A stretch of 64,000 nucleotides of DNA from Verrucomicrobiota bacterium. GTDB taxonomy: Bacteria > Verrucomicrobiota > Verrucomicrobiia > Chthoniobacterales > Chthoniobacteraceae. Location: NCBI GenBank assembly GCA_037143855.1, contig JBAWXX010000001.1:43675-107674 (forward strand), given 5' to 3'. Made by a program: the position numbers and the translations under genes. How positions within the stretch are numbered: the first letter of the stretch is position 1; every line of letters starts with the position of its first letter. A model generated the notes under the pieces. The model was not told the origin of the DNA. It searched no databases and saw nothing but the letters and a program-made list of their open reading frames with translations. This document shows, in pieces, positions 203-44,166 of this stretch.

Positions 203-622
203 ATGCCTGCCTTGCTCCTCAACGCCACGGCCACCGCGGAATGGGTGGTCCGCGCCTCCGATCTCGCCAGTTCGCTTCCCTCGGATCCCCGCGACGCGTT
301 TCCCCCGGTTTTCGCCACGCCCCGCCTGGCGGCCTTGATGGAGCTGGCCTGCGCCCGGCTGCTGCAACCCATTCTGGAGCCGGGCGAGCTTTCCGTGGGC
401 GTCAGCCTGGACTTGGCGCACACCGCCGCCACGCTGGAGGGGGCCAAAGTGACCGCGACCGCGCGTTACGTGGGCCGCGACGGCGCTTTCTATGTCCTCA
501 AGGTGACGGCTTCGGACCCGGCGGGCGAAATTGGACGGGCCACCCACAAGCGGGCCATCGTCTCGGTGGAGCGGTTGCTGGCTGGAGCCCAAAAGCGGGC
601 GGCGGCGCCCCGCCCCCTATAG
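203..622 (+). CDS. Hotdog-fold thioesterase family protein
   Basis: ORF track 32..622. ATG at 203 (MPALLLNATATAEWVV) is preferred over TTG at 32, whose extension is Arg/Ala-rich and overlaps the divergent gene start. The body (FATPRLAALMELACARLL...VGVSLDLAHTAATLEGAKVTATARYVGRDGAFYVLKV) matches the single-domain hotdog thioesterase pattern from memory. Confidence 0.65.
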   Translation: MPALLLNATATAEWVVRASDLASSLPSDPRDAFPPVFATPRLAALMELACARLLQPILEPGELSVGVSLDLAHTAATLEGAKVTATARYVGRDGAFYVLKVTASDPAGEIGRATHKRAIVSVERLLAGAQKRAAAPRPL

Positions 623-3154
623 CGCAGGCTCCGGCCGGACCACCGCAAGCACGCGGGGGGCTTCCCCAAAGAGATCACGGGCGACGGCGCGCACGTCTTC
701 CAGCGTCACGGCTTCGACGCGTTCCCGCAAGTGCGTGGATTCGTCAAACCCGAGGCCGTAGAGTTCGTCGAGGGCGCAGGAGTGGGCCAGGGCGTCGTTG
801 CTCTGCTTGTGGAGCGCTTCCTGGCCCAGCAGCTTGGCTTTGGCGCGCGCCAGTTCCTCGGCGGTGAGGCCGTCGGCGGCCAGGGCGCGGATTTCGTCCA
901 AAAGCTCGGCCTGGACGGGCACGACCTTGGCGGGGGAGGTGCCAAGATAAAAGACGAACGGCCCGGGGACGAGCCCCTGGACCTGGCTCGCGCCGACAAA
1001 ATAGGCGAGCCCGAGGCTCTCCCGGATCCGCAGGAAGAACCGCGAGCCCAGGTCGCTGCATGCCTCTTCGATCAGCTCCAGGGCGTAGCGCCGGGGGTCG
1101 TGCAGGTCGATCCCGCGAAATCCCACCATGAGGATGGCCTGTTCGTTCGCCTTGTGTTCCTCGACGCTGCGGGAGCCGTCCAAGGGAGCGGGCGGGATGG
1201 GTGCGGTGTGGGCGGGTTCCCCGGCGGGCAGAGCGCCGAAGGCTTGCTCGGCCAGCGCCCGGACTTCTTCCGCCTTCACGGCTCCGAAGACGGAGAGCAC
1301 GCCGTTGCGGCCGACGGCGAAGCGCCGGTGGAAGGCGTCCAGCCGGGCGCGGTCAAGCCCGGCGACGGAGGCGGGGTTGCCGTTGGAACGGAGGCCATAG
1401 GGGTGCCCGGGGAACAAAGTGCGGCGCAGGAGGGCGCGGGCGATGGAGGTGGGCTCCTCCTCCTCGGCTTTGAGGGCGGCGAGTTGCGCCTCTTTTTCGC
1501 GGGCGACCTCGGCCTCGGGAAAGCTCGGGCGGGCCAGGATCTCGCCCAAGATTTCGAGCCCGGCGGCAAGGTTGGGTTGCAGGGTGCGCAGCGAGACGGC
1601 GAAGGATTGGTTCCCGGCTTCCGCGGCGATGCCGCCGCCCAGGGCCTCGATGGATTCGGCGATTTCTTGCGCGGAGCGTGCGGCCGTCCCCTTGGGAAGA
1701 ACGTGCGCGTGGAGGCGGCCGATGCCGTTGTTTTCAGGCGTCTCGGCAAGCAGCCCGGCTTTGAAGCAGGCGACGGCGGAGACGAGCGGCAGCCGCGGGT
1801 CTTCGCGGACCAGCAGGGTCAGGCCGTTGGAAAGGGTGTATTTTTGCACGGCCCCGGCGGGGGCGGCTGCGGCAGCCCGGGCGGGAGGCGGCAGGGAGCC
1901 GGGCGGGTTGAGGGAGGTGACGGTCAGGTTGGCGTCGGTGCAATACGTGGCGGCCACGCGGGCGATGTCGGCCGGGGCGACGCGCTGGAGGGCGGCAAAA
2001 TAGTCGCGGGTATAGTTGGGGTTGCGGGTCAGTTGCCAGTTGGAGCCGATGTCCGAGGCGCGCCCCCGCGTGGTGGCGAGGCTGCTCAGTTGGCTGGAGA
2101 GGGCCTGGGCGCGCGCTTTCTCCAACTCGCCCGGGAACGCGCCCCCGGCTTTGATGCGCTCGATGACGGCAAAGATTTCCGCCAGGGCGGCTTCCCGGCG
2201 CGCGGGGTCGGCGAGGGCTTCGATGCCCAAGAGGCCGGGCTGCCCCGGGGTGTAACACCAGGCGCTGATGCCGTGGACGAGCCCGCACTCCTCGCGGACG
2301 CGCCGGTTGAGGCGGCTGGAGCGGCCGTCGCCCAGGAGGAGGGCAAGGAGGTCGAGCGCGGGCACGTCCGGGTGGGTCAGTTCGGGGATGTGCCACGCGA
2401 TTTCGAGCCGGGTCAGCTCAGCGGATGGAAATTCGACGTGCTCCTCTCTGCGGCCGCTCTGCGGCGGTTCCTGGGGGATGAAGACGGGGGCGAGCGGACC
2501 GCGCGGCGTCTCGGCGAAGGCGGCGGCGAGCTGGTCGTGCACGGCCTGCGGGTCCACGTCGCCGGTGACGACGAAGAAAAGGTTGTTGGGGACGTACCGG
2601 GCCCGGTAGTACGCCATGACATCGTCGCGCGTGAGCCGGTTGTAGATGTCAAGGTGCCCGATGACGGGGTGGCGATAGGGATGGCGGCGGAAGGCGGTGG
2701 CAAAGAGGGTCTGCGAACTCATCCGGTCGGGATCGTCCCGGCACATGGCGAACTCGCGCCGGATGACCTCCTGCTCTTTCACGTATTCCTCGGGCGGCAG
2801 GGCGGCGTGTTGCACGGCGTCGGCCAGGAGGTCGATGGCCGCTCCTACGCCTGGGCTGGGGGTGTCGATCCAATAGACGGTCCGGTCAAAGGAGGTGTAG
2901 GCGTTGAGCACGCCCCCGAGGGCGTGGACGCTCTGGGCAAAGACGTTGGGCCCCCGGGTGGCGGTCCCCTTGAAGAGCATGTGTTCCAGGATGTGCGAGA
3001 GCCCCGAGCCGAGCCAGCGGTCTTCGTGAATGGAGCCCGTCTCGCACCAGGCCTGGATGCTGGCGACGGGGGCGGCGTGGTCTTCCTCCACCAAAATGCC
3101 AAGGCCGTTGGGGAGGGTCCATTGGCGGACGGCGGAGGGGGGGAGGTCGATCAT
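617..3154 (-). CDS. M16 family zinc metallopeptidase, double-length (two M16 active/inactive domain pairs, PqqL-like)
   Basis: 845 aa. Inverted zincin HxxEH motif in GLSHILEHMLFKG. A second M16-like unit begins near YTLSNGLTLLVRED. The antisense 1021-aa ORF was rejected. Confidence 0.9.
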   Translation of the reverse strand: MIDLPPSAVRQWTLPNGLGILVEEDHAAPVASIQAWCETGSIHEDRWLGSGLSHILEHMLFKGTATRGPNVFAQSVHALGGVLNAYTSFDRTVYWIDTPSPGVGAAIDLLADAVQHAALPPEEYVKEQEVIRREFAMCRDDPDRMSSQTLFATAFRRHPYRHPVIGHLDIYNRLTRDDVMAYYRARYVPNNLFFVVTGDVDPQAVHDQLAAAFAETPRGPLAPVFIPQEPPQSGRREEHVEFPSAELTRLEIAWHIPELTHPDVPALDLLALLLGDGRSSRLNRRVREECGLVHGISAWCYTPGQPGLLGIEALADPARREAALAEIFAVIERIKAGGAFPGELEKARAQALSSQLSSLATTRGRASDIGSNWQLTRNPNYTRDYFAALQRVAPADIARVAATYCTDANLTVTSLNPPGSLPPPARAAAAAPAGAVQKYTLSNGLTLLVREDPRLPLVSAVACFKAGLLAETPENNGIGRLHAHVLPKGTAARSAQEIAESIEALGGGIAAEAGNQSFAVSLRTLQPNLAAGLEILGEILARPSFPEAEVAREKEAQLAALKAEEEEPTSIARALLRRTLFPGHPYGLRSNGNPASVAGLDRARLDAFHRRFAVGRNGVLSVFGAVKAEEVRALAEQAFGALPAGEPAHTAPIPPAPLDGSRSVEEHKANEQAILMVGFRGIDLHDPRRYALELIEEACSDLGSRFFLRIRESLGLAYFVGASQVQGLVPGPFVFYLGTSPAKVVPVQAELLDEIRALAADGLTAEELARAKAKLLGQEALHKQSNDALAHSCALDELYGLGFDESTHLRERVEAVTLEDVRAVARDLFGEAPRVLAVVRPEPAL

Positions 3155-6715: not shown

Positions 6716-7660
6716 ATGAAGAAACTCCTTTTCTTGGCAGCCATTATGGCTTGCCTCATCCAGTCTACAGCCACTCATGCGGCGAATGCGCCTGAATACG
6801 TTTCTGGACTATCTTACGGCAAATCCGATCACCTCCCGACTATATCATCCCTGGCCGTGGGCAAGGATGACTTCCTGGTCGTGGCGGCCATGAACAAGGT
6901 ATTCATCTACGATCCGGCCAAGGAACAGAGCGTGCGCAGCTTTGACTCGGGCTTTGCGAAAATCAGCGCCGTGGCGGTGGAGGGCCAGACAATTTACGTT
7001 TTCTCGCGCAAGACCAAACCGAAGGAAATGGCACTCAACGGACGCAAATTCACATATGAGGTCCCCATCGGGGCGCAATGCAAAAAGTTCGCGTGGGATG
7101 GCACTCTGATTGGCGAATTAAAATTGGAAAACCTGATGGATGTCATCAACGCAAAGGTTGTTGCCGGCAAGGTTTACGTTTCCGATTTTGGCGGGACCCG
7201 CACGATCCGCGTCTTTGATGCAAGGACGGGCAAAGCGATGGCTTCGATTGGCAAAAACCTGCGCCTTTGCTGCGGTATTCTTGATTTTGCAGTCGACCCC
7301 AAAAACGAGGATGTGCTCGTCGCCAACCTGGGGGCTTTCCGGCTGGAACGCTACAGCCCCGCTGGCAACCTCCATTCCTTCTTTGGCAAGCGCGGGGATG
7401 ACGCCGAATCGTTCCAGGGTTGCTGTAATCCGGTCAGCGCGGCGGTGTTGCCCGATGGCAATCTGGTAGTCGTGCAAAAAGACCCCTCCCAAGTGAAGCT
7501 CTATACGCCCCAAGGCCAGTTGCTTTTCCAGTTCAAGGATTTGCAGGAACTCGTAAAAGGTTGCAACCGGGTCTCGCTCGCCGTGGATTCCCGCGGACGG
7601 GTTTATCTTGGGGTGGACATGGGCGAACGATTCATTCTACAATACGTGCCGAAATTGTAA
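6716..7660 (+). CDS. Exported NHL-repeat beta-propeller protein with two vicinal Cys-Cys motifs
   Basis: Signal peptide MKKLLFLAAIMACLIQSTATHA-AN. At least 5 NHL-like blades (KVYVSDFGGTRTIRVFD, LDFAVDPKNEDVLVANLGAFRLERYSPAGN, NPVSAAVLPDGNLVVVQKDPSQVKLYTPQG, NRVSLAVDSRGRVYLGVD). CC pairs at codons 185-186 and 236-237. Confidence 0.8.
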   Translation: MKKLLFLAAIMACLIQSTATHAANAPEYVSGLSYGKSDHLPTISSLAVGKDDFLVVAAMNKVFIYDPAKEQSVRSFDSGFAKISAVAVEGQTIYVFSRKTKPKEMALNGRKFTYEVPIGAQCKKFAWDGTLIGELKLENLMDVINAKVVAGKVYVSDFGGTRTIRVFDARTGKAMASIGKNLRLCCGILDFAVDPKNEDVLVANLGAFRLERYSPAGNLHSFFGKRGDDAESFQGCCNPVSAAVLPDGNLVVVQKDPSQVKLYTPQGQLLFQFKDLQELVKGCNRVSLAVDSRGRVYLGVDMGERFILQYVPKL

Positions 7661-7670
7661 AAGAACCCGT

Positions 7671-8579
7671 ATGACTTTTCCCAACCTCCTTTCGTGGTCT
7701 CTGGCGCTTTTATTGACCGGGGGAACCTTGGCTGCCAACCCGGCGGCAGAGAGCGAAACCGCTTTTTGCCACCAGGATGGGGAGCGACTGAAGCCGGGCA
7801 ATGCGCCGCTCAAACTGGTGGTAGGCGTCAACGACATCTACTGCAAGGACAGTTCCTGCAAGTGTATTGAGCATATTGCCACGCGACAGTACGGCGAGTT
7901 CTGCCGCAAGCTCAAGGAAGCTTACAACATCGATCTCCAATTTATATACTTCCTCGAACCGTACGATCTGGACCGGGCCTTCCGTGCGGAGCAATTCGAC
8001 GCGGTATTAAGTAAACCGTGGCTCGTCTTTCGGCATCCCGAGGCCTGCCAACGGATGGTGCGCGTGGCGGATTTACAAGATCTTCACCGCAACACCGGGC
8101 TGTGGGGCATCGTCATCGTGCCCAAAGATTCCCCCCTCAAAAACCTGGGGGAAATTGCGGGGCATCGCATTGCTTATGGGCAATCCGACGCCTATGAAAA
8201 ACATCAGGGCGCGCTCGCGCTCTTTAAACGCGAGGGAATCACAATCCCGGCGGACAAGCTTGTGGAAAAAGCAAGCTGCCTGGAATGCATCGACCTGTTG
8301 ATGAAAGGCAGCGTGGATGCCGCCGTCATCAGCAACTACGCGCTGACGGCGGACTGCGCCGTGGATATCACCACGCCGGATGCGTTTCGCGTGCTCGGGA
8401 AAACAGAGGAAATGCCCCTGACAAGCTTCATGATCGACCTCCGCCGCGTCTCGCGTGCCGACGCGTGCCGTGTGCAGCAGGCATTGTGCGAACTCTCGAA
8501 AACTGAGTTACCCCCCTCGATGAGCGGCGGCGGTTTTGTGAAACCGGCCTCGTGGAAAGTTCCTGGCATCGAGCGATGA
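7671..8579 (+). CDS. Exported PhnD-like (type-2 periplasmic binding protein fold) substrate-binding protein, Cys-rich
   Basis: ATG at 7671 lies 10 nt after the upstream stop. Signal peptide MTFPNLLSWSLALLLTGGTLAA. PBP2/PhnD-like blocks include LKLVVGVNDIY, GHRIAYGQSDAYEKHQGAL and VDAAVISNYAL. There is an N-terminal CKDSSCKC cluster and several further Cys. No ABC permease or ATPase is adjacent. Confidence 0.7.
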   Translation: MTFPNLLSWSLALLLTGGTLAANPAAESETAFCHQDGERLKPGNAPLKLVVGVNDIYCKDSSCKCIEHIATRQYGEFCRKLKEAYNIDLQFIYFLEPYDLDRAFRAEQFDAVLSKPWLVFRHPEACQRMVRVADLQDLHRNTGLWGIVIVPKDSPLKNLGEIAGHRIAYGQSDAYEKHQGALALFKREGITIPADKLVEKASCLECIDLLMKGSVDAAVISNYALTADCAVDITTPDAFRVLGKTEEMPLTSFMIDLRRVSRADACRVQQALCELSKTELPPSMSGGGFVKPASWKVPGIER

Positions 8580-9184
8580 AGCCGGACCCCACACGCCGGC
8601 AATTTCTCGTGCGGGCGGGGCGCCTACTTGGCGTGAGCGCCTTGGCAGGTGTGGCGGTGCGCGTATGGGGCGGCGGTAATAAAGGAGCGGAGTTTACACA
8701 GCCGCCGCATCGCTACGGCTGGCAAATCAACCCGGAGGCCTGCACCTACTGTGGCTTATGCGAAACAGCCTGCGTACGCGGGCCTTCGGCGGTTAAAGCG
8801 GTCAATGACCAGAAGAAATGCTCCAACTGTGTCGCCTGCTACGGTCACCTGTGTGATCTGAAAACCCCGAGCCGCTTGATTGCCACGACCGATAAACTGG
8901 TCTGCCCGCATGACGCCGTGCAGCGGACCCGCTTGTCGGGCGGCCTCGACGGCGCTTATACCTACCTCATTGATCCAGATAAATGCACCGGCTGCGCCCA
9001 ATGTGCGCGCCAGTGCAATCTCCATGGCAGCCGCTCGATGTTTCTGGTCATCCGGCCCGATCTTTGTCTCGGCTGTAACGACTGCGCCATCGCGCGGGTC
9101 TGCCCCAGCAAAGCGGTCGAGCGGGTGCCTCTTTATCCGGCAAACGATTTCCGCGGCGTTTACCTACCGGAGCAAACGTCATAA
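8576..9184 (+). CDS. Tat-exported tetra-[4Fe-4S] ferredoxin, NapG/MauM-like
   Basis: The start ATG overlaps the upstream stop (ATGA). Twin-arginine motif TRRQFLV. Cys motifs are CTYCGLCETAC, CSNCVACYGHLC, CTGCAQCARQC and CLGCNDCAIARVCP, plus a lone CP (VCPHDAV). Confidence 0.8.
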   Translation: MKPDPTRRQFLVRAGRLLGVSALAGVAVRVWGGGNKGAEFTQPPHRYGWQINPEACTYCGLCETACVRGPSAVKAVNDQKKCSNCVACYGHLCDLKTPSRLIATTDKLVCPHDAVQRTRLSGGLDGAYTYLIDPDKCTGCAQCARQCNLHGSRSMFLVIRPDLCLGCNDCAIARVCPSKAVERVPLYPANDFRGVYLPEQTS

Positions 9185-9188
9185 TTTT

Positions 9189-10271
9189 ATGGTTGGAATT
9201 TTCGATTCGCCGATCAAATGGCGGCGCGCCTTTCCAATCTTGCTGGTTTTGACAATGATGGCAGCCCTCATGGGAGAAGTCGCTGCGGAGGAGACAGAGG
9301 CATTCGATCCCGGCAAGGTCACCGGATCGGAAATCCAAGCATACCGGGACCAGTATGTGCCCCGGGAATATCCCGCGCCAGCGCGTGCGTGGTTCTATGC
9401 CGATGTGGCCGTAGTGACCGGCCTGTTGTTGAGCGGGATGTGGCTGGTACGCACAAATCGTCCCGTTCGATGGATCTCGGCCCAACTGGCGCTGGCCCTG
9501 CTCTATTTGGGAGTGATCCGGGGCGGATGCATCTGCCCGGTAGGCGCAACGGCCAATGTTGCGCTCGGCGTATCACACCCAGAATTGGTCGGGCGGGCGA
9601 CGCTGGCACTTTTTCTGGTTCCGCTCATGGCGGCCTTGGCAAGCGGACGGATTTTTTGCGCTACGGTGTGTCCGCTGGGTGCGGTGCAGCAGCTGCTTTC
9701 TGGAAACCGGCCCCGGTTAGTACCGCGTCCGTTACATCGCATCCTGCTGGCGCTGCCGGTAGTGGTGTTGCTGGCAACGGCCGGAGCAATATGGACGGGG
9801 ATCGGATTTCTGCCTTGCTTACTCGATCCTTACAAACCCCTCTTTTTTCAAGGTCATGCATTTATGCAGAAACTGACCGCTTTGCTCTCATTGGGCTATG
9901 CCGAACCGGTCCGTATTCTGGCTGGGAGTGGCTTGGCCTGGGCAATTTTAGTGGCCGCATTGGTTGTCGGATGGTTTATTCCACGCGTGTTTTGCCGCTA
10001 TGTCTGCCCGTATGGCGTTTTACTGGGACTGCTTTCTGCGGTGGGATTTTGGCGGCGAGAAATCGATGTGGAAGCCTGCATAAACTGTGGACGCTGCGTA
10101 AAGCACTGCCCGGTGCAGGCGATTCAACATTCGCCCGATGGAAAGACATTGAAACTATCTTCCTATCAATGCGTGCAGTGCGGTAGCTGTTCCACAATTT
10201 GCAAGCGTCAATCCATCCTGCGCCAAAACCCAAAGACGCCCCTGCCAACTTCCGCTCCCGGCGGTCCTTGA
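9189..10271 (+). CDS. Integral-membrane polyferredoxin, NapH/MauN/YccM-like
   Basis: ATG at 9189 lies 4 nt after the upstream stop. It has multiple TM helices and membrane-proximal motifs CICPVGA, CATVCPLGA and CRYVCPYG. Two C-terminal 4Fe-4S motifs are present: CINCGRCVKHCP and CVQCGSCSTIC. Confidence 0.8.
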   Translation: MVGIFDSPIKWRRAFPILLVLTMMAALMGEVAAEETEAFDPGKVTGSEIQAYRDQYVPREYPAPARAWFYADVAVVTGLLLSGMWLVRTNRPVRWISAQLALALLYLGVIRGGCICPVGATANVALGVSHPELVGRATLALFLVPLMAALASGRIFCATVCPLGAVQQLLSGNRPRLVPRPLHRILLALPVVVLLATAGAIWTGIGFLPCLLDPYKPLFFQGHAFMQKLTALLSLGYAEPVRILAGSGLAWAILVAALVVGWFIPRVFCRYVCPYGVLLGLLSAVGFWRREIDVEACINCGRCVKHCPVQAIQHSPDGKTLKLSSYQCVQCGSCSTICKRQSILRQNPKTPLPTSAPGGP

Positions 10272-10326: not shown

Positions 10327-10391
10327 CTAGTACCTTGTAACAAGGAAAATGGCGCATAGAGCGCCGGATTTTATGCGTTACAAGGCACTAG
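10327..10391. repeat. Family-B small element, short 65-bp form (B2)
   Basis: CTAGTACCTTGTAAC...GTTACAAGGCACTAG has 15-bp terminal inverted repeats with 1 mismatch. The first 46 nt are identical to 5068..5113. Confidence 0.8.
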
Positions 10392-10648: not shown

Positions 10649-12559
10649 CTACCTGCCCTTTGACTGCGTGTCGAGCCACGTATGAAAACCCATAGGCGCA
10701 ATCGTCACTTGGCTGTTCAGCGCAAACTCGGTAGTGCCAAAATTAACCGCAACATGCCAGCCATTGGAAAAATCAGTTTGCTGGACATTCCGGTCGGGCG
10801 TCAGCCAGCGATGATTGACCAACGCCGCCCCAAAGAGCTTTTCATAGACAGGCACAACCCGGTTATAGGACTCCAGGATCTTCTCCTTGTTTTTCCAATA
10901 GGTTCGGTTGTCGATGTGGTAGGAAGGCGCCGTTCCATAAAGGATATTGAAAAGGTCCTTCTTGAGCATGTATTCGGGCTGCACAAGGGAGTTGTCGCCC
11001 CAGGCCCAGGTCGCCACCCGGGCGTCCCCATAGACGATGCCATTGGCGGGCACTCGCTTTTCGTGAGACATATTGAAATTCTTGAAGTCCTCAGTGGGCG
11101 GCACCGGGTCCAAGCGCCCCTCCATGTGATAGACGCTCATCCCGCCTTCACTGACCGTGAGGTAAGGCGTTCCCCATGCGGCGCCACCTTCGCCCCCCAG
11201 GATCATGCCGTGGTCATAGAAGAGCTTGAAGACTCGCAGGCGCCCTTCCATCGATTGCTTCGGGTTCACCGGATGTTGGGGATTGTAATCCTGGTCCAGC
11301 CACAGCGCCGCTCCGGGGGTGACATCGAAAAACCGATAGGTAAACCGATAGTCAGCCGATTCCGCTTCGAGCCGCTCCTTGGCCGCCTCAAAACTCATGG
11401 CCGGTGAGTCGACATACCGATTCCCTTTGGGTCCGACGTTGGCGCGCAGCTCGCCCCGTTCGTTTAGCCCGACATGCTCGGGAATCCGGCCGAATCGCTT
11501 GTAGCGCTCCATCCACTCCACGGAAATCTTGTCATACCCGTTGGCCTGATACCATTCCTTCGACATGAGATCGAAGTAGTTGTCATAGATGCCGACAATA
11601 CCGTTGAACTTTTTTTCGATTTTTTGGGCCTCCTCGGGATTGATGTAAAAATTGAACCCCAGCCCCAAAATCCCCTTGTTCATGCCCGAAGCCGCCATGT
11701 CGTCCAGGATTTTTAAGACCTGATCCGCTCCGGAACGCCCCGGATAGATCCAAAACAACGGCGCGCCCTTCAATTTTGCAATCGCCGGATTGTCCTTCTG
11801 CTTATCTGAGAGACTGCGATAATTGCCGCTCTCCATGAGGTGTTTGCGGAAGTTCAAAGCAATGTTCACATAGCCGCCATTCTGCTGAAAAATATACCTG
11901 ACGCTTCGCGGTTCCTGGAACTTCTCGAGATATGCTCCGAACGAGAGTTCCGGGACCAAAGTGGGTTTGCCGGAAACCTGCTTGAGCCTCAGTGACAAAC
12001 CACCGTGATAGAAATCGTTGTTTATCAGGGTATACCCCTCGCCGGTCTGCGGGTGGAACAAGCCCGCCCATTCCAGGCAAGGGTTGGTGATGGCATTGGG
12101 GCACCTTTGCGGCATCGCCGGATCGTCCACTTTGTACAACAACCCATAGCCGTCCGGGATAACCCACTCAAAGCCCTTCCCGCAAACGGTAAAAGGCACG
12201 AGGAAATTCACAATTTGTATCTTCTGATCCGGATCCATTTGCAGGGTCACGTCGACCACCGGCGAGTCCGGCGCCAACCTGTAATTGAGCGACGGCTTAA
12301 AGGGGCCAGAGGAGAAGGAGACTTTCACCCCATCTTTTTGGGGCACGACCGCCACATCTTTGATTTTATTCAACTCGAAACCGGGCATCTGTTTGTAAAC
12401 AGTGCCCGTTTTGAGGTCGGCAACCTCCACCAAGGAGGTGGTCTCATCGACCTTCAAGGAGAGAAATTTGTTTTTAACCTCGAGCGCGTTGGCCGAGGAA
12501 AACCCCAACAGGGACGGCAGCAACCAAACATAAACCAAACAGTTACTGAGATTTCGCAT
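10649..12559 (-). CDS. Secreted putative glycoside hydrolase of an uncharacterised family (paralog of the C-terminal module of 13101..15764)
   Basis: 636 aa with signal peptide MRNLSNCLVYVWLLPSLLGFSSANA. It shares conserved blocks with the neighbouring gene: TGTVYxQMPxFxLN, GFEWVxPxGYGxLY, KKDLFNILYGTAPSY and HRWLTxDRNVQQxxFSNGW. The family assignment is not verified. Confidence 0.7.
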   Translation of the reverse strand: MRNLSNCLVYVWLLPSLLGFSSANALEVKNKFLSLKVDETTSLVEVADLKTGTVYKQMPGFELNKIKDVAVVPQKDGVKVSFSSGPFKPSLNYRLAPDSPVVDVTLQMDPDQKIQIVNFLVPFTVCGKGFEWVIPDGYGLLYKVDDPAMPQRCPNAITNPCLEWAGLFHPQTGEGYTLINNDFYHGGLSLRLKQVSGKPTLVPELSFGAYLEKFQEPRSVRYIFQQNGGYVNIALNFRKHLMESGNYRSLSDKQKDNPAIAKLKGAPLFWIYPGRSGADQVLKILDDMAASGMNKGILGLGFNFYINPEEAQKIEKKFNGIVGIYDNYFDLMSKEWYQANGYDKISVEWMERYKRFGRIPEHVGLNERGELRANVGPKGNRYVDSPAMSFEAAKERLEAESADYRFTYRFFDVTPGAALWLDQDYNPQHPVNPKQSMEGRLRVFKLFYDHGMILGGEGGAAWGTPYLTVSEGGMSVYHMEGRLDPVPPTEDFKNFNMSHEKRVPANGIVYGDARVATWAWGDNSLVQPEYMLKKDLFNILYGTAPSYHIDNRTYWKNKEKILESYNRVVPVYEKLFGAALVNHRWLTPDRNVQQTDFSNGWHVAVNFGTTEFALNSQVTIAPMGFHTWLDTQSKGR

Positions 12560-13100: not shown

Positions 13101-15764
13101 ATGAAAAACAGATTCAAATTCATGAAACTATTGGGTCTGGTTGCCGCATGCCTGGCAGCAAGTTCCGCTCATGCGGAATTGGGGCGCGTGACCCTGGATA
13201 TTGTGGAGCAGTATCCCGAGGCTTTGATCAAGAAGGGCGATCCGGGAACCGAGGTGGCCACGACCGGTGTCGAGAACGGACTGTTGCTGAAAGTCGCGGG
13301 GAAATATCATTTCTTTACATCCATATGGATGGATGCGGTACAAATCGGCTCCACGTTTGGCAACGGATACTGGACAAGTCCCGACGGGATCAAATGGAGG
13401 CTGGAGAAGGTGCTGCAAGCGCCCGGGCGGGACCGCACCGGAGAGGACGTGCGGACGTTGTTCTGGGAGCCGATTCCCGTTTATGATTCAAAGGCCGAAC
13501 GCTGGAACCTCATCTATATGTCCGGCCGGTGGGTGGGGCCGAAAGCCATGGCGCTTGGGGAAAAAGGTACGGGCAAATGGGATGGGCGGCCCTGGCGCGC
13601 CGTTTCCAAGACCAAAGGCCTGGAAGGGATCGGCGGGCCATGGAAGGAACTCGGGGAGATCGACCACGGCCCTTACGATCCGTGGGAGGGGCGGCAGTAT
13701 ATTGGCGAGTGGGGCAGCACGAGCACGTGGTTTCCTTATGCCTGTGGCGACCGATGGATGGCCATGTACGGCAGTCACCGCGGCTGGCAGGTCGGATTGG
13801 CCGAGGCGCAGAGCCTGCAGGGGCCTTGGAAACGGCTGAGCCGGCTCAATCCCCTGACCTTGAGCGGCGGTTATGGCAACGAATCTCCGAGGGTGTTCCG
13901 TTTAAAGAGCGGGCGGTACCTGTGCCTGTTCAACGTCATCAAGGATATGCGCTATCCCGACCCGAAGATGGAAGTCGAGTTCACCCACCCGATGTTCTCG
14001 CATCTGGGCATGGGATACAGCGATTCGGCGGACGGCGTCCATTGGTCGGAATCCCGGTTTTTAATGCTGAAGGCCGATGACAAGTTGTGGTGCAAACAGA
14101 TGCGCACGCCGGTCGGTTTTATCGAGGAACCGGACGGGACCTACACGCTCTACTACACGGCGATGACGGATGGGTTTTTTAAGGGGTTTGAAGGGTTGGG
14201 GCGGGTGCGCGTCAGCGTCACGGAGGAAAAACCGCTTTCTCGTCCAGTCCCAGTGGCGGCTGGTGACGATGCCAGTTCAATAAAGCTCGAGAACCCTTAC
14301 CTGATCCTCCAGGTGGATAAGAGCACCGGGTTGGCGAAGGTCACGGACCGGAGAACCGGGACGGTTTATACACAGATGCCAGCGTTCGACTTGAACCGCA
14401 TCAGCGATGTCCGTTTGGCGGCCAAAGAAGATGGGAGGGAGATCGAGACTGCCTTCACCTTCGATCGGATCCCGACGACCTTGTCCTACCGGTTGTTGCC
14501 CGAGTCGCCGGAACTTGAGGTGAGCGTGGATCTGCCGCCCGACCCGGCGATCAAGTCCGTTCCACTTCCCGTGCCTTTTACGGTTGCGGACCAGGGCTTC
14601 GAATGGGTGGTGCCGGAGGGGTACGGGATGTTGTACGCCGTGGACAATCCTTCCATGCCGCAAGCGGCCGTAAACGGGGAGCTTCAGCTTGGCGTCTTTG
14701 GCAGTTCGTTGTCGGCATGGATGGGATTGGTCCAGCCGAAATCCGGTGCGGGCTACGCGCTGATCTTCAAGGATCCGCATGCCGTGGAGGCCGCCCTGAA
14801 GTTGACGGATACGGGGGATCGGAAAGCGCTGGTGGCGCGCATCGACCTGTTGCCCGAGAGAGGGAAGTTTTCCGGCAAGCGGTCGTTCAAATATATCTTC
14901 CAGGCCAAGGGCGGCCCTGTGGCTTTGGCGAAGAATTACAGGGCGTTTCTCCAGGACAACGGCTGGTACAAGAGCCTGGCCGAACAGCGGCGGGATGATA
15001 CCGCGATTGAAAACCTGCGTGGCGCGCCGGTATTCCGCATCGTCAGCCGGTTCCCTGGTACCGGAACGGCCGAGGCAACCATCAAGGTGGTGGATGACCT
15101 GCATCGCAGCGGGATTCAACGGGCCATCATCGAGCTGGGCAGTCCCGAGCTGTTCGAACGCGCTCAAGTGCAGGCCATGGAGCGACATGGTTACGTGGTA
15201 CAGTTTTCCGACCATGGTTACGAATACGCCCAGGGGTTGTTGGCGGGGCGCTGTGCCGAGGTGCCGGGCCTCATGAGCCAGGCACGCTATCAACCGGCCA
15301 TGAATGCCGGGTGGGAGCCCATGACCCCGACCCGGGACTACGCCGATTTCGCGATGGCCCATCGAAAAAGAGTGCCAGTCACGGGCGTGGTGATCGGGGA
15401 TGCCCGGGTGAGCACCTGGGCGTGGCCTGACGCCAACAACCGGGTCGCGGGTTGCTGGCTGAAGAAAGATCTCTTCAATATCCTGTATGGCACCGCTCCG
15501 AGCTATGTTTTCGACCCGGTTGGTTACTGGAAGGACAAGGATGAGATTCTCAAGTCCTGCGCCCGGGTAAGCGAGGTGTACCGCAAGATATTCGGGGCCG
15601 CGCTGGTGAGCCACCGGTGGTTGACGGAGGATCGCAATGTGCAACAGGTGGAATTCTCGAATGGGTGGGCGGTGATCGTCAATTTCGGCGACATGCCCTA
15701 CAAGGCGGCCAAGGGCAATGTCGTGCCGCCGATGAGTTGTCATCTTTTCACAACGGTTCTTTAA
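13101..15764 (+). CDS. Secreted two-module putative glycoside hydrolase (N-terminal beta-propeller-like module plus C-terminal module paralogous to 10649..12559)
   Basis: 887 aa. AGGAG lies 8 nt upstream of the ATG. Signal peptide MKLLGLVAACLAASSAHA. The N-terminal ~390 aa carry repeated W/Y-rich strand motifs (YHFFTSIWMD, WTSPDGIKW, WNLIYMS, WMAMYGS, YLCLFNV, YTLYYTA) reminiscent of 5-bladed GH propellers. The C-terminal ~490 aa are colinear with the 636-aa neighbour. Confidence 0.7.
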   Translation: MKNRFKFMKLLGLVAACLAASSAHAELGRVTLDIVEQYPEALIKKGDPGTEVATTGVENGLLLKVAGKYHFFTSIWMDAVQIGSTFGNGYWTSPDGIKWRLEKVLQAPGRDRTGEDVRTLFWEPIPVYDSKAERWNLIYMSGRWVGPKAMALGEKGTGKWDGRPWRAVSKTKGLEGIGGPWKELGEIDHGPYDPWEGRQYIGEWGSTSTWFPYACGDRWMAMYGSHRGWQVGLAEAQSLQGPWKRLSRLNPLTLSGGYGNESPRVFRLKSGRYLCLFNVIKDMRYPDPKMEVEFTHPMFSHLGMGYSDSADGVHWSESRFLMLKADDKLWCKQMRTPVGFIEEPDGTYTLYYTAMTDGFFKGFEGLGRVRVSVTEEKPLSRPVPVAAGDDASSIKLENPYLILQVDKSTGLAKVTDRRTGTVYTQMPAFDLNRISDVRLAAKEDGREIETAFTFDRIPTTLSYRLLPESPELEVSVDLPPDPAIKSVPLPVPFTVADQGFEWVVPEGYGMLYAVDNPSMPQAAVNGELQLGVFGSSLSAWMGLVQPKSGAGYALIFKDPHAVEAALKLTDTGDRKALVARIDLLPERGKFSGKRSFKYIFQAKGGPVALAKNYRAFLQDNGWYKSLAEQRRDDTAIENLRGAPVFRIVSRFPGTGTAEATIKVVDDLHRSGIQRAIIELGSPELFERAQVQAMERHGYVVQFSDHGYEYAQGLLAGRCAEVPGLMSQARYQPAMNAGWEPMTPTRDYADFAMAHRKRVPVTGVVIGDARVSTWAWPDANNRVAGCWLKKDLFNILYGTAPSYVFDPVGYWKDKDEILKSCARVSEVYRKIFGAALVSHRWLTEDRNVQQVEFSNGWAVIVNFGDMPYKAAKGNVVPPMSCHLFTTVL

Positions 15765-15776: not shown

Positions 15777-18700
15777 ATGTTTACTCGAAATGCGTTACGG
15801 ATGTTGGCGGTCATGCTATTGATCGGTTCGGTTGCCGGAGCGGACGGGGATATCGAGCGCGGGTTCCGCAATCCGCCCGAGAGCGCCAAACCGCAGGTCT
15901 GGTGGCACTGGATGAATGGCAACATCACCAAGGAGGGAATCACGGTCGATCTGGAAGCGATGAAACGCGTCGGGTTGGGCGGAGCCCAGATCTTCAATGC
16001 CGACCAGGGAACTCCGGAAGGATCGGCGCGATTTATGACCGAACCGTGGCGGCAACTGACCCGCCATGCCCTCGCAGAAGCCGACCGGCTGGGGCTGGAA
16101 CTCGGCCTGCACAATTGCGCGGGTTGGTCCAGCAGCGGCGGCCCATGGATTACTCCTGAACACAGCATGCAGACGGTCGTCACCAGCGAGCAGACGGTCC
16201 AAGGTCCCGCGCATTTCTCGGCGGTTCTTCCCAAGCCCAAAGTTTTTATCGATTATTACCGCGATATAGCCGTCCTGGCCTTTCGGACGCCTCGCGGTGA
16301 GTCCGGCCGGGTGAAGGACTGTGCGCCCAAAGTTACGGCGAGCACGCCGGAATTTGATGCGGCCAAGATCATGGATGGCGATCTCGCGACCCAGACACCG
16401 CTGCCAATGCCGGCGGCCCCGCTCAATCCATACGTGCAGTTCGAGTTTGCTCAGCCGTTTGCGGCCCGGACGCTGACGCTGGGGGGCAATCTTTCCTGGA
16501 CCTGCGAGCTGCAGGTTTCCGACGATGGAACTCACTTCAAAACAATCCGAAAATTTGTAACTCCGGGTGCAATGGCATTGCAGCACTTGGGGTTGACCGA
16601 TGCGGTGGATCCGATCAGGGCTCGCTTCTATCGGGTGGAATTCCCGCGGCAGCCCGGCATTCAGATTGCCGAGGTCAATTTATCGGAGCGTTTAAGCGTG
16701 GAGAAGTTCGATGTTAAAGTCGCTAACTGCCGCGAAATTGGTTTTAATGCCGCGCCTGAGTATAGCGTTCGTCCCGATAACGTCGCACTCTCCGCAGGCC
16801 AGAGCGCCCCGGAGTTCGCGGTGCCGCGCGAAGGGGTCGTCGATCTCACCAGCCGAATGGCTCCCGATGGCCGCCTGGACTGGGAGGTGCCGCCCGGGCA
16901 GTGGACGATTTTGCGCCTGGGCCACACACCGACTCGCTCCTTTAACCATCCGGCTGCTGCGGGCGGTATGGGACCGGAATGCGATAAACTCAGCAAGGCT
17001 GGCGCAGAGGCCCACTGGGCGGGTATGATGCAAACCGTCATCTCGGACGCCGGTTTACTGACGGGAAAATCGCTCAACAATGTCCTTATTGATAGCTATG
17101 AGGTCGGCTCCCAGAACTGGACGGCGGATTTTCGCGCGGAATTTCTGCGTCGGCGCGGTTATGATTTGGGTTCCTTCTTGCCAGTACTGAGTAATCGGAT
17201 TGTGGCTAGCCCGGAGATCACCGAGCGCTTTCTCTGGGATTTTCGACGCACCATTGCGGATCTATTTACTGAAAACTACTACGGCCATTTCGCGACCATG
17301 GCCCATCGCAGCGGATTGCAATTCGCCGCCGAGGCCTATGGCATGGGGAATTTTGACGAATTGGCCAGCGGGGGAGCGGCCGACATTCCGATGGGTGAGT
17401 TCTGGGCGCCTAGCGGGATCGGCGGTTCAAACTACTGTAAGCTCGCAGCGGCTTCCGCCCACACCTATGGCAGAAAGATTGCTGCAGCAGAGGCTTTTAC
17501 CGGGGGAGGGAAATGGCCGGTTCATCCCTTTGCGTGCAAGGCGGGTGGAGATTATATCTTCTCCCTAGGAATCAATCGATTCCACTTTCACCGTTACGCG
17601 ATGCAGCCTTGGACGCATCAAGCCCCCGGCATGACCCTGGGCCAGTGGGGAAGTAATTTTGAGCGGACCAACACCTGGTGGGAGCAGTCGTCCGCCTGGA
17701 TGCGCTACCTCGCCCGCTGCCAGTTTCTTCTTCAGGAGGGAACCTTCACCGCCGATCTCTGTTTCCTGGGCGGTGAGGACTATCTCGCGGGACTCCAAAT
17801 CCCACCCCAGCCATCATTGCCGACTGGCTACGATTACGACCTTTGCGACCGAAGGAAGCTCCTGGAAGGAATGAAGGTCGAGAACGGCCTCTTCACATTT
17901 CCTTCCGGCATGCGCTACCGTTTTCTTGTGCTGCCCGATTCGAAGGCGCTCACGCTCCCGGTGGTAAAAAAAGTGCGCGACTTGGTGGCTGCCGGCGGCA
18001 CGGTTATTGGTTCCAAACCGCTCTTCTCTCCATCGCTGGAGAATTATCCAGCATGCGAGGCCGAACTGCGCAAGATTGCCGACGAGGTATGGGGTCCTTG
18101 CGACGGCAAAACGGTAACCGAAAACCGCTACGGCAAAGGCCGCGTTATCTGGGGCCAATCGTACACGGAGATTTTCGCGTCCGCCAAGCTGCAACCGGAT
18201 TTCTCGTTCACCTCCGCTTCACCGGGTGCGCGATTCAATACGATCCACCGCACGTCGAAGGAGGCTGACTGGTATTTCGTATCCAATGCTGACAAGTCCT
18301 CCCTTGAGGCTATCTGTTCGTTTCGCATCACGGGGAAGCGGCCGGAGTTCTGGTATCCAGACACAGGGAAAATCGAACCCGTCGCCTGGTATCGGATCGA
18401 GAACGGACAAACCTTCGTGCCGATGCGCTTCGATCCGTTCGGTTCGGTCTTCGTCGTTTTCCGTTCGCCCTCTGCGGATAGTGTCGTCTCGGTGGCGCGT
18501 GACGGCAAGCCGATTGCCTACGACAAGAAAGAGGAGGGCGCTGGTGCTGATAGACTGGGGAATTTGTCTGGGTTCGGCCTCACGCAAAAAGGATCCGGGG
18601 TCGATCTCACGGCATTTACTCCCGGACGGTATGAATTTGCGATGACGTCGGAAAAAAAAGCAGAGGCCACCATCGATCTCCCCAGCCCGCTGGCGGTCGA

Positions 18701-19274
18701 AGGCCCGTGGGCGGTGCAGTTTGACGCCAAGTGGGGCGGTCCGGCAACCCCGGTGACCTTCGAGCACCTGGAGGATTGGAGCAAACGGCCCGAGGAGGGA
18801 ATCAAGTACTTCTCGGGCACGGCGGTTTACGAGAAGGAATTTGAAGTTCCTGAGGGCTACATGGGCACGGGCCGCAGGCTTTGGCTGGATCTCGGGCGGG
18901 TGGAGGTGATCGCCGAGGTGGAAGTGAATGGGAAAAACCTTGGTATCCTCTGGAAACCGCCGTTCGCCGCAGACATGACCGATGCGATCAAGCCGGGCAA
19001 GAACACCGTGAAAATTCGGGTGACCAATCTCTGGCCCAACCGGCTGATTGGCGATGAGCATCTGCCAGCGGATTGCGAGTATGGGCCGGAGGGAAATCTC
19101 AAAGCGTGGCCGGATTGGCTGACGAAGAACACTCCACGCATCAGCGGGCGGCGGACGTTCACAACCTGGCGCCATTGGAAGGCGGAGGACCCGCTGCTGC
19201 CCTCGGGCCTGCTCGGGCCGGTACGCCTAGTTCCGACCTTCGTTGAAACCCTCAACTTCAAGAAAGGGAAATAA
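15777..19274 (+). CDS. Large secreted glycoside hydrolase, GH106-like (alpha-L-rhamnosidase-type) with C-terminal jelly-roll sugar-binding domain
   Basis: 1165 aa with a signal peptide. The N-terminal motif FRNPPESAKPQVWWHWMNGNITKEGITVDLEAMKRVGLGG and the C-terminal VNGKNLGILWKPPFAADMTDAIKPGKNTVKIRVTNLWPNRLIGD recall this family from memory. The GH family number is unverified. Confidence 0.7.
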   Translation: MFTRNALRMLAVMLLIGSVAGADGDIERGFRNPPESAKPQVWWHWMNGNITKEGITVDLEAMKRVGLGGAQIFNADQGTPEGSARFMTEPWRQLTRHALAEADRLGLELGLHNCAGWSSSGGPWITPEHSMQTVVTSEQTVQGPAHFSAVLPKPKVFIDYYRDIAVLAFRTPRGESGRVKDCAPKVTASTPEFDAAKIMDGDLATQTPLPMPAAPLNPYVQFEFAQPFAARTLTLGGNLSWTCELQVSDDGTHFKTIRKFVTPGAMALQHLGLTDAVDPIRARFYRVEFPRQPGIQIAEVNLSERLSVEKFDVKVANCREIGFNAAPEYSVRPDNVALSAGQSAPEFAVPREGVVDLTSRMAPDGRLDWEVPPGQWTILRLGHTPTRSFNHPAAAGGMGPECDKLSKAGAEAHWAGMMQTVISDAGLLTGKSLNNVLIDSYEVGSQNWTADFRAEFLRRRGYDLGSFLPVLSNRIVASPEITERFLWDFRRTIADLFTENYYGHFATMAHRSGLQFAAEAYGMGNFDELASGGAADIPMGEFWAPSGIGGSNYCKLAAASAHTYGRKIAAAEAFTGGGKWPVHPFACKAGGDYIFSLGINRFHFHRYAMQPWTHQAPGMTLGQWGSNFERTNTWWEQSSAWMRYLARCQFLLQEGTFTADLCFLGGEDYLAGLQIPPQPSLPTGYDYDLCDRRKLLEGMKVENGLFTFPSGMRYRFLVLPDSKALTLPVVKKVRDLVAAGGTVIGSKPLFSPSLENYPACEAELRKIADEVWGPCDGKTVTENRYGKGRVIWGQSYTEIFASAKLQPDFSFTSASPGARFNTIHRTSKEADWYFVSNADKSSLEAICSFRITGKRPEFWYPDTGKIEPVAWYRIENGQTFVPMRFDPFGSVFVVFRSPSADSVVSVARDGKPIAYDKKEEGAGADRLGNLSGFGLTQKGSGVDLTAFTPGRYEFAMTSEKKAEATIDLPSPLAVEGPWAVQFDAKWGGPATPVTFEHLEDWSKRPEEGIKYFSGTAVYEKEFEVPEGYMGTGRRLWLDLGRVEVIAEVEVNGKNLGILWKPPFAADMTDAIKPGKNTVKIRVTNLWPNRLIGDEHLPADCEYGPEGNLKAWPDWLTKNTPRISGRRTFTTWRHWKAEDPLLPSGLLGPVRLVPTFVETLNFKKGK

Positions 19275-29946: not shown

Positions 29947-30117
29947 AACAGAAGGGAGGAGGAAAGCAGGCCCATCCAATGGAGCAAATTTCGCGGCAAT
30001 GTAAAGCCCGGAAGGGAGACTCCTTCCCAAAACGGAAACCGGGTGCGGACCGATGTTGAGCTTGCACCGGCAGCGCTTCTTGAGGAAACTTGCTGGTTTC
30101 CAAAGGCTTTTTATCCC

Positions 30118-38999: not shown

Positions 39000-39041
39000 G
39001 CCAGGAGAAGCTCAGTCCCCCCTTTGCGTTAACCGCGCAGT

Positions 39042-39857
39042 CTACGACAGCCGCACAAAATCGCGCAAAAACTGCACCCAGACGAAAAACATGCCGCGCC
39101 AGGAATACCGGACCATCCCCTCGCCCATCGGCTGGAGCAGCCCGGCGGAAACATTGTGGGCGATCTGGCGCTCCAGGTCGCGCTGCATGGCAAGCTGCAT
39201 TTCCTCCGGAGTGGCGGGGAGCAACATCGCGGCCGTCACCCCCGACTTCTCTAAAAATATCCGGTGGCTCTCGATCATCTCGCGCACCGAGCGGTCGCCC
39301 CGCAGCCGGTTGGTGCGGAACTGGGGGGCGAACTTCATCGCGTAGGCGAAAGGGTAATTCCAGGTCGTCCAGGAGGTCCCATCCGCGCTCCGGGAGGAGA
39401 AGCAGAGGTAATAAAACGCCATGTCCTCCTGGTCCACCAAACAGATCGTCCCCTGCAAATGCTCGTCCCCTTTGTAAAAGAGGCGGAAGAACTGGCGGTG
39501 GTCCCCCCAATCCCATCCGGCGTCATCCACCTGCTCGAACCCCTCCTCCTCCATCTCCTCCGTCAACGCGCCAAGGTCGGGGAAGATCGAGCGCGCGGGG
39601 GGGAATTGGGGGCGCAGGGGCTTGACCATCGGCAACCGGGCCTTGCGCACGCGGGTCAGAATCTCCAGCCACGGCAGCATCAGCCAGCTTGCGGCAAAAA
39701 GACCCCCCGTCTCCCAACGGCCCGTGGCAAAGTAGCCCACCAGGAAGGAGGTCCCCAAAATACAGAAAGAGCCGAGCTTGAAGAGGATCGGGTTGGAAAA
39801 CGTCCGCAATCCCATGCTCAGGAGCGCTGCGGCAAGAATGAAAAGGATGTCCGACAT
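39042..39857 (-). CDS. Integral membrane hypothetical protein (N-terminal TM bundle plus cytoplasmic domain)
   Basis: 271 aa. It has 3-4 N-terminal TM helices ([17 protein letters not shown]..., [13 protein letters not shown]..., [12 protein letters not shown]) followed by a soluble domain. No family was recognised. Confidence 0.7.
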
Positions 39858-44165: not shown

Positions 44166-44166
44166 C

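Follow-up and report, generated by a model that had tools for sequence, protein, structure and literature searches.

A 64,000-nucleotide (nt) stretch of contig JBAWXX010000001.1 from a Verrucomicrobiota bacterium (GCA_037143855.1, positions 43,675 to 107,674 of the forward strand; the window) carries four tightly packed genes, g1 to g4, which form a cassette that recurs in at least four bacterial phyla (Table 1). Their products are an exported NHL beta-propeller (g1), an exported protein of the PhnD fold (g2), a ferredoxin exported by the twin-arginine pathway (Tat; g3) and a NapH/MauN-like iron-sulfur protein of the membrane (g4). The constant partner of the g3-g4 pair is g2, not the propeller, and two unrelated bacterial lineages tie the cassette to genes of thiol or sulfur redox chemistry. 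The cassette may quite possibly serve thiol, disulfide or persulfide redox chemistry in the periplasm, driven by iron-sulfur clusters, a reading that is offered tentatively and is weighed below against several others. No description of this cassette was found in literature searches.

The four genes lie on the same strand, separated by 10 nt, by a 4-nt overlap (ATGA) and by 4 nt, which confirms the coordinates and spacing from which an earlier note on this DNA had concluded that they form one operon. The starts of g1, g2 and g4 reproduce the database proteins P0075, P0001 and P0195 at the same length and with 100% identity. The hairpin and T-run found shortly after g4 are probably the operon terminator; within this element, a terminator-like site at 10350-10366 is followed by GATTTTAT, as judged by a consensus match only.

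When one genome per species was scanned with an alignment of g2 as the query, 80 loci emerged, which were tallied by group from the titles of their records. Bacteroidota account for 34 loci (Marinifilum, Ancylomarina, Carboxylicivirga, Saccharicrinis, Sunxiuqinia, Puteibacter and metagenome-assembled genomes (MAGs) labelled Muribaculaceae or Rikenellaceae), Verrucomicrobiota for 27, Kiritimatiellota (Pontiella and relatives) for 13, and other or unclassified organisms, including one Victivallis MAG and one Planctomycetota MAG, for 6. Many of the hosts come from sulfidic anoxic habitats, according to the same titles. The g2 family is sharply bounded, with 74 matches that all have E <= 1e-44. 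When the window proteins were compared with all open reading frames (ORFs) of the loci, g1-g2-g3-g4 was the common order, with a common strand, in almost all loci that were long enough. Synteny in other genomes had been set beforehand by the earlier note as the test on which its idea of a self-contained system could fail; the four genes proved to be syntenic in about 70 of the 80 loci, across several phyla. Departures from this order mostly concern the propeller: six loci have the order g2-g3-g4-g1, g1 is not adjacent in about six (in all, it is absent or displaced in about a dozen), and g2 occurs without g3 and g4 in two. All-against-all clustering of the flanking ORFs placed g1, g2, g3 and g4 in 75, 82, 78 and 74 loci, respectively, and the next genuine cluster in at most 12, so that no fifth conserved gene emerged from the 80 loci. 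Because most loci keep the same order and have no additional conserved gene in common, the cassette is best described as an old, portable and self-contained four-gene module; that it is self-contained had been supposed by the earlier note. More distant copies may keep the same neighbours: of two g1 relatives of about 30% identity that were looked up, both are followed by a Phosphonate-bd gene, and one by a Fer4 gene too, before their contigs end.

Two irregular loci deserve mention. At L026 (8494-12273), a locus from a MAG of the Verrucomicrobiota, g1 and g2 stand without g3 and g4 and are followed by the gene of a twin-arginine protein that, judged by eye, resembles a Gfo/Idh/MocA-type oxidoreductase; the same MAG has a second g2 copy on contig L064. 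The complete cassette at L056 is recorded under 'uncultured Bifidobacteriaceae', a host label that is probably a binning error, because a Gram-positive host is implausible for a Tat-exported periplasmic ferredoxin with lipoprotein partners.

The g3-g4 pair resembles NapGH, MauMN and NosGH in that the gene for a Tat-exported ferredoxin with four [4Fe-4S] motifs stands beside, and is translationally coupled to, the gene for a polytopic membrane protein in which CxxxCP (Fer4_5) motifs are combined with a 2x[4Fe-4S] domain at the C-terminus. Protein g3 bears the twin-arginine motif TRRQFLV and 16 Cys arranged as four 4Fe-4S motifs, and it matches Fer4 families of Pfam; all 16 Cys are invariant among 77 orthologs, and the RR motif is found in 58 of 71 N-termini. 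Protein g4 matches Fer4_5 of Pfam (48.7 bits) as well as Fer4 families, and its 15 Cys, all invariant among 72 orthologs, make up two CxxxCP motifs (C157/C161 and C269/C273), a GGCxCPxG motif (C114 and C116), a lone C210 and two C-terminal CxxCxxCxxxC motifs. The earlier note was therefore right to liken g3 to NapG/MauM and g4 to NapH/MauN as far as these motifs go, but neither protein is a member of the family in question. The score of g3 is 19.2 bits against TIGR00397 (MauM/NapG; cut-off 178.85) and 22.5 bits against NF007012 (NapG equivalog; cut-off 269), and that of g4 is 65.8 bits against TIGR02163 (NapH/MauN; cut-off 213.05) and 54.6 bits against NF007013 (NapH equivalog; cut-off 234). 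With scores so far under the curated cut-offs, the pair should be called NapGH-like rather than NapGH. The best 120 matches in a homolog search with g4 are cassette orthologs only, all of at least 40% identity, and searches of PDB sequences with g3 and g4 found only generic 2x[4Fe-4S] domains and no solved NapH-like membrane domain.

Family-averaged hydropathy and the positive-inside rule predict six transmembrane helices for g4, with the N-terminus inside, as opposed to the four described for NapH; the two extra helices are N-terminal, and the invariant GGCxCPxG motif and C210 likewise set g4 apart from NapH. In this predicted topology C114, C116 and C210 would lie on periplasmic loops, and both CxxxCP motifs and the ferredoxin domain would be cytoplasmic. 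NapH-like proteins are modular conduits that transfer electrons across the membrane in combination with varied reductases and oxidases; for most of them, partners and reactions are unknown (PMC8238504). The NosR and PceC/RdhC-type systems (PMC8238504) similarly use a NapH-like protein as a portable conduit to varied periplasmic partners, but they do so with an FMN-binding domain that is flavinylated by ApbE and located on the outer face, whereas the cassette lacks such a domain and has a NapG-like polyferredoxin and Cys-based proteins. The partners also distinguish the cassette from NapGH, NosGH and MauMN, being a Cys-rich periplasmic binding protein (PBP) fold and a Cys-rich NHL propeller instead of NapAB, NosZ or methylamine dehydrogenase. 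The neighbourhoods of the cassette in the 80 loci have no conserved nap, nos or mau gene, and none was found in the window by a Pfam scan of 28 of its larger ORFs, in agreement with the earlier note.

Protein g2 matches PF12974 with 69.2 bits (cut-off 27), and Foldseek searches with its AlphaFold2 model (predicted local distance difference test score, pLDDT, 89.9) retrieve XAC2383, PtxB, PhnD, HtxB, AioX and ArrX, with E values of 1e-12 to 1e-14 for PtxB, PhnD and HtxB. It is a member of the PhnD fold superfamily, and shares the type II PBP fold with these proteins, but it is not a component of a PhnD-type transporter. Its score against the PhnD-type equivalog TIGR03431 is 14.4 bits, far under the cut-off of 261.1, and its family profile matches no solved protein among PDB sequences. 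Neither an ATP-binding cassette (ABC) transporter gene nor a sensor-kinase partner accompanies it, unlike PhnD, PtxB, HtxB, AioX and ArrX: no ABC gene of the PhnC/PhnE type stands beside g2 among the scanned window ORFs, and none is conserved in the 80 loci. The description of g2 in the earlier note, an exported PhnD-like protein that has no ABC transporter, is thus borne out. The export signal is of the twin-arginine type in none of 50 orthologs, and 24 of the 50 have a lipobox, so that about half are predicted lipoproteins.

A further difference from PhnD-type binding proteins is a set of four to five Cys in g2 that is conserved only beside iron-sulfur genes. C63, C65, C203 and C229 are invariant in 27 sequences and C58 is nearly so; C58, C63 and C65 are found in the loop that follows the first strand, C203 at the N-terminus of a helix of lobe 2, and C229 in the crossover segment. 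Judging from these positions in the PhnD-type fold, the conserved Cys would line the ligand cleft. A cysteine is used in ligand binding by AioX. Two divergent copies of the cassette (L089 and L090, about 30% identity) retain all five Cys, and an orphan g2 paralog that has no iron-sulfur gene beside it (P0074; L005, 8001-8858) has lost C63, C203 and C229 and retains the other features of the fold signature.

The variable tail that links the signal peptide of g2 to its first strand contains an 'ETA[FL]' motif (residues ~28-31 of the window protein) that is conserved across phyla and is trailed in many Bacteroidota proteins by 'PCCGEP', another vicinal Cys pair. The motif might serve as a docking or tethering peptide.

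The identification of g1 as an exported NHL propeller also holds. Its N-terminus is a Sec-type signal peptide, and the best PDB matches of its AlphaFold2 model (pLDDT 91.5) are six-bladed NHL propellers, namely the NHL domains of Thin, TRIM71, TRIM2/3 and Brat (Foldseek, E about 1e-13); the Pfam NHL model (PF01436) falls just short, with 19.1 bits against a cut-off of 20, and no NCBIfam model scores above a few tens of bits. Six Cys are invariant in alignments of 24-31 sequences from several phyla: C122, the vicinal pair C185-C186 (RxCCGI), the vicinal pair C236-C237 (GCCNPV) and C283 (KGC). A deep profile search found these motifs still present in relatives of about 30% identity. In the model's secondary structure, the two vicinal pairs and C283 directly precede the innermost strands of three blades (4, 5 and 6), and, by the usual geometry of propellers, they would surround the central channel at its mouth, on the 'top' face. 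A published description of this cysteine signature could not be found.

Thioredoxin-like domains combined with an NHL propeller are an established extracytoplasmic redox architecture, as exemplified by SOQ1 and NHLRC2. Like the NHL domain of these proteins, g1 is a six-bladed propeller that is found, outside the cytoplasm, with thiol-disulfide oxidoreductase domains. The NHL domain of SOQ1 has no conserved Cys and is thought to be a scaffold, whereas the propeller of g1 itself carries the six invariant Cys, including two vicinal pairs. None of the g1 relatives among the deep-search matches is fused to a thioredoxin domain; those of their extra N-terminal regions that were inspected, by eye, are DUF4369-like or unassigned. 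In Bacteroidota, g1 bears an N-terminal DUF4369 domain, and so do TlpA-like redoxins of the same gene islands. Some propellers of the g1 family (P0379, P0385, P0368 and P0369) have none or few of the signature Cys; the corresponding aligned regions of P0379 read NNPGRFDF, PLNGNPLN and EDGKNF. These may be inactive or repurposed paralogs.

The gene neighbourhoods that tie the cassette to thiol or sulfur chemistry are of two kinds. In Bacteroidota, six-Cys paralogs of g1 (L086, L087 and L088) occur in islands with SusC/SusD, several AhpC-TSA, Redoxin or Thioredoxin proteins and DsbD, and the cassette itself is located inside such redoxin/DsbD islands in the Marinilabiliales genera Marinifilum, Ancylomarina and Carboxylicivirga and in other Bacteroidales MAGs. 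The order of genes, with Trx denoting thioredoxin, is SusC-SusD-Trx-Trx-DUF4369-redoxin-SRPBCC-DsbD_N-[g2-g3-g4]-DsbD-M16 peptidase in M. fragile (L049) and Trx-NHL-NHL-(FG-GAP+DsbD_N)-Trx-g1-[g2-g3-g4]-DsbD-M16-...-TrxB-like in M. caeruleilacunae (L053), which has three copies of g1. Of the 34 Bacteroidota loci, 14 have redoxin, thioredoxin or DsbD genes at a distance of <=10 kb from the cassette, and their arrangement takes several forms. In Pontiellaceae, by comparison, the genes downstream of the cassette at eight loci encode an ArsR-type regulator and proteins like DsrE and FlpD/MvhD, and at seven of the eight also an HdrA-like flavo-iron-sulfur protein of 909 amino acids (aa). TusA was seen only at the P. 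desulfatans locus (L001) and at one other of the eight. The genes of this downstream block suggest that the cassette has a partner in the cytoplasm, of the sulfur-relay or heterodisulfide type.

If the cassette is a thiol, disulfide or persulfide redox system, g4 would link the menaquinol pool, a low-potential cytoplasmic donor that acts through the cytoplasmic 2x[4Fe-4S] domain, or both, to the periplasmic face of the membrane, where g3 would serve as an electron wire of four clusters. The one-electron chemistry of the iron-sulfur clusters would then be turned by g2 into two-electron thiol chemistry in a Cys-lined cleft, and g2 would act either as a dithiol/disulfide relay or as the protein that binds and reduces a small sulfur-containing or anionic substrate. 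The terminal Cys-based catalyst, or a client that is kept reduced by the module, would be g1; some of its Bacteroidota paralogs are apparently served by a classical DsbD/TlpA-type pathway instead. We infer the order of electron transfer, the use of thiol rather than metal chemistry, and the reductive direction, the last of these from the DsbD/TlpA gene context. Because g1 and g2 have Sec or lipoprotein signals, they are expected to cross the membrane unfolded, and pre-assembled iron-sulfur clusters are thus unlikely; the proteins should either gain a cofactor in the periplasm or perform thiol chemistry. The invariant Cys of g1 and g2 and the thioredoxin/DsbD islands, neither of which figures in the earlier note, point to thiol or sulfur chemistry, and thereby away from the suggestion of the earlier note that the binding protein merely presents a small anionic substrate.

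This scheme would resemble the DsbD, CcdA and ScsB pathways with their TlpA-like or thioredoxin-like clients in delivering reducing equivalents across the membrane to Cys-based periplasmic proteins; DsbD, DsbD_N-like, TlpA-like and thioredoxin genes are neighbours of the cassette and of g1 paralogs in some Bacteroidota. DsbD, however, draws electrons from cytoplasmic thioredoxin through thiol-disulfide exchange and is devoid of iron-sulfur clusters, whereas the cassette has neither a thioredoxin fold nor the transmembrane domain of DsbD (no DsbD_TM or thioredoxin family of Pfam or NCBIfam is matched by g1 to g4). The proposed step from g3 to g2 or g1, in which iron-sulfur clusters would reduce a disulfide, has functional analogs in ferredoxin:thioredoxin reductase and heterodisulfide reductase. 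The analogy does not extend to sequence or fold, even though the CCG tripeptide of HdrB is also present in g1: the Cys of those enzymes ligate a cluster inside a cytoplasmic protein, and g1 and g2 are Sec-exported. It is possible, but on the whole unlikely, that the NapGH-like conduit, g2 as a Cys 'adaptor' and g1 together constitute a route independent of DsbD, with g1 as a new periplasmic disulfide, persulfide or polysulfide reductase. Were this so, both g1 and g2 would represent a new enzyme class, and the route could account in part for the so far unexplained way in which fermentative Pontiella, and polysaccharide degraders related to it, reduce external acceptors.

Several observations weigh against thiol redox chemistry as the function of the cassette. 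The Verrucomicrobiota loci, including that of the window, have no link to thioredoxin/DsbD or to DsrE/Hdr-type genes; the thioredoxin/DsbD association is limited to less than half of the Bacteroidota loci (the 14 of 34 noted above), and the DsrE/Hdr-like link is confined to one family, where shared ancestry could be its cause. The Cys pattern would suit a metal-binding or metal-sulfide site of either protein (g1 or g2) equally well. The cleft of g2 contains the invariant polar residues N54, Y57, R72, D173, Y175, E176, K177, E205, Y223 and D232, which suggest the specific binding of a small ligand rather than a pure disulfide relay. Finally, at about -75 mV menaquinol is ill suited to reduce typical disulfides, and a quinol-driven reduction would therefore need an extra driving force or a low-potential donor in the cytoplasm.

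The simplest alternative, that g3 and g4 are an ordinary NapGH, NosGH or MauMN pair serving an enzyme encoded elsewhere in the genome, with g1 and g2 as unrelated neighbours, would account for the NapG/NapH-like architecture and the weak matches to the family models. It is very improbable and indeed close to refuted, given scores far under the family cut-offs, the adjacency of g2 to g3 and g4 in 78/82 and 74/82 loci of several phyla with translational coupling, and the lack of any conserved nap, nos or mau gene near the loci. Cassette-bearing Pontiella, moreover, do not reduce nitrate and are reported to have no molybdoenzymes (PMC7356697), which excludes a distal NapA as the client of g3 and g4 in those relatives and, to that extent, settles a possibility that the earlier note had left standing. 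A dissimilatory or detoxifying reductase that works without molybdenum on a small inorganic anion or sulfur species (polysulfide or elemental sulfur (S0), tetrathionate, arsenate, selenite) is less easily dismissed, although it too is rather unlikely. The anion would be bound in the cleft of g2 and reduced by g1 or g2 through an ArsC-like Cys cascade, and g3 and g4 would re-reduce the Cys from menaquinol. Such a role is consistent with the likeness of the g2 fold to the oxyanion binders PtxB, HtxB and PhnD and the arsenite/arsenate sensors AioX and ArrX, with the many invariant polar residues of the cleft, with the respiratory reductases that NapGH-type modules normally serve, and with the sulfidic habitats of many hosts. 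It would also suit the physiology of cassette-bearing Pontiella, which make menaquinones and reduce S0 and ferric citrate as well as anthraquinone-2,6-disulfonate (AQDS) by unknown means and with no explanation in their genes (PMC7356697). However, Kiritimatiella glycovorans reduces S0, Fe(III) and AQDS although it has no quinones (PMC7356697), and the genome scan found no cassette match in it. The cassette is thus dispensable for this phenotype, and it was not adopted as the cause of S0, Fe(III) and AQDS reduction in Pontiella. Thiosulfate, like nitrate, is not reduced by Pontiella (PMC7356697), the profile search found no sequence-level match of g2 to characterised anion-binding PBPs, and the thioredoxin/DsbD/SusCD context in Bacteroidota fits the chemistry of protein or organic thiols better.

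A metal or metal-sulfide centre, comparable to CuZ, that is assembled in the periplasm on g1, g2 or both and is kept reduced or matured by g3 and g4 appears improbable. Maintenance or maturation of a centre has been proposed as a model for NosR/NosGH with NosZ and for MauMN with methylamine dehydrogenase. Five of the g1 Cys occupy, in the model, equivalent sites before the inner strand of three adjacent blades, with the sixth elsewhere, an arrangement that would suit a cluster in the channel; four invariant Cys would likewise lie in the g2 cleft; and NapH-like proteins are known to serve propeller enzymes (NosZ, the heavy chain of methylamine dehydrogenase), to which g1 would be analogous. On the other hand, g1 and g2 are Sec substrates or lipoproteins and have no conserved His clusters, the surroundings of the cassette in the 80 loci have no conserved gene for a metallochaperone, an ABC-type sulfur or metal exporter (NosDFY/NosL-like), ApbE or another maturation factor, and the DsbD/TlpA context argues for thiol-disulfide exchange. 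Thiol chemistry might also run in the opposite direction, with periplasmic thiols or sulfide oxidised on the Cys of g1 and g2 and the electrons passed by g3 and g4 into menaquinone, which would give the cassette a function analogous to that of DsbB/VKOR or sulfide:quinone oxidoreductase. Thermodynamics favours the transfer of electrons to menaquinone from thiols or sulfide (about -270 mV), NapH-like modules occur with oxidases as well (PMC8238504), complex I in the window and fumarate reductase in Pontiella would be available, the latter to re-oxidise menaquinol, and many hosts live in sulfidic habitats. This direction is nevertheless hardly probable: the neighbouring DsbD, TlpA-like and thioredoxin genes are those of reductive pathways, the 80 loci have no conserved DsbA-like partner, and the cytoplasmic 2x[4Fe-4S] domain of g4 would be left with no obvious role.

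The novelty of the cassette lies in two new Cys-based partners of a periplasmic redox system that is otherwise of the modular, NapH-like kind. If the reductive thiol reading is true, it would be a third way of wiring electrons of the membrane or cytoplasm to extracytoplasmic Cys chemistry, beside DsbD-type relays and flavinylated NapH-like systems, and it would place the NHL propeller and the PhnD-type binding protein, very common folds that are not normally seen as redox enzymes, in a redox role. Across major lineages that degrade polysaccharides in anoxic waters, sediments and guts (Verrucomicrobiota, Kiritimatiellota, Marinilabiliales and other Bacteroidales), the cassette is widespread, and its products are hidden behind misleading automatic names such as 'phosphonate ABC transporter substrate-binding protein', 'YccM' and 'DNA-binding beta-propeller YncE'. 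Because its carriers include the cultured Pontiella desulfatans, P. sulfatireligans, Marinifilum, Ancylomarina, Carboxylicivirga and Puteibacter, the hypothesis is directly testable.

Table 1. Features of the cassette, of its surroundings in the window and of the related Pontiellaceae loci. Positions are those of the window unless a locus is named.
Feature	Position	Strand	Size or basis
g1, exported six-bladed NHL beta-propeller	6716..7660	+	314 aa
g2, exported PhnD-fold (type II periplasmic binding protein) protein	7671..8579	+	302 aa
g3, Tat-exported ferredoxin with four [4Fe-4S] motifs	8576..9184	+	202 aa
g4, NapH/MauN-like integral membrane iron-sulfur protein	9189..10271	+	360 aa
Inverted repeat, GC hairpin and T-run, 56 nt past the g4 stop	10327..10391	+	24-nt inverted repeat
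GH129-like/DUF5696 gene, first of two divergent paralogs	10649-12559	-	Pfam
GH129-like/DUF5696 gene, second paralog	13101-15764	+	Pfam
GH106 alpha-L-rhamnosidase gene	15777-19274	+	Pfam
nuo-type run: 49-kDa subunit (NuoD-like), NADHdh (NuoH-like), four Proton_antipo_M (NuoL/M/N-like)	about 39000-52000	+	Pfam
Downstream block of Pontiellaceae	L001 10641-16843, and seven other loci	same as cassette	

The G+C content of the cassette (57%) is lower than the mean of the window (63%), as the earlier note had seen, but the difference is not specific to the cassette: the low-GC zone spans ~6.5 to 19 kb and takes in the genes for the GH129-like and GH106 (glycoside hydrolase) proteins, which have 54-59% GC. 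The small repeats that had been described as bordering the block are two-copy matches of 12-25 nt, which is the level expected by chance. The GH129-like/DUF5696 and GH106 genes lie directly downstream of the cassette and are equally low in GC; they show no synteny with it in other genomes. Besides these, the scanned ORFs include an M16 peptidase, the flotillin FloA and a ThiF-rhodanese protein, and a separate search found a tRNA-Leu. None of the flanking genes (FloA, GH129-like, GH106, ThiF-rhodanese) is kept at related Verrucomicrobiota loci, and they are therefore not part of the cassette system. At least five subunit genes of a nuo-type NADH:quinone oxidoreductase are also among the scanned ORFs, from which it follows that the host has a quinone-linked respiratory chain, a point of relevance for a quinol-dependent role of g4.

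A two-domain M16 (insulinase-type) peptidase is encoded near the cassette at several loci (L034, L049, L050, L053, L054, L057, L060 and L062, in addition to the window), just past DsbD at the Marinifilum loci and directly past g4 at the Bacteroidales MAG L057. Such a neighbour may hint at peptide substrates. The homolog in the window (617-3154 on the minus strand; E 1e-13 to 1e-19) is located 3.5 kb upstream of the cassette on the opposite strand, and its presence there is probably a coincidence.

Some other ORFs of the window are unusual. Those at 29503-33177 (plus strand, 1224 aa) and 22065-23282 (minus strand, 405 aa) have a strong coding-type GC3 bias and no Pfam match at E <= 1e-5. The ORF at 23459-25654 (plus strand, 731 aa) combines a low-molecular-weight phosphotyrosine phosphatase (residues 7-146), an RpiB/LacAB isomerase (173-311) and a serine hydroxymethyltransferase (325-700), Pfam domains that usually belong to three different proteins, and may be either a true tri-domain fusion or a set of neighbouring genes read in one frame.

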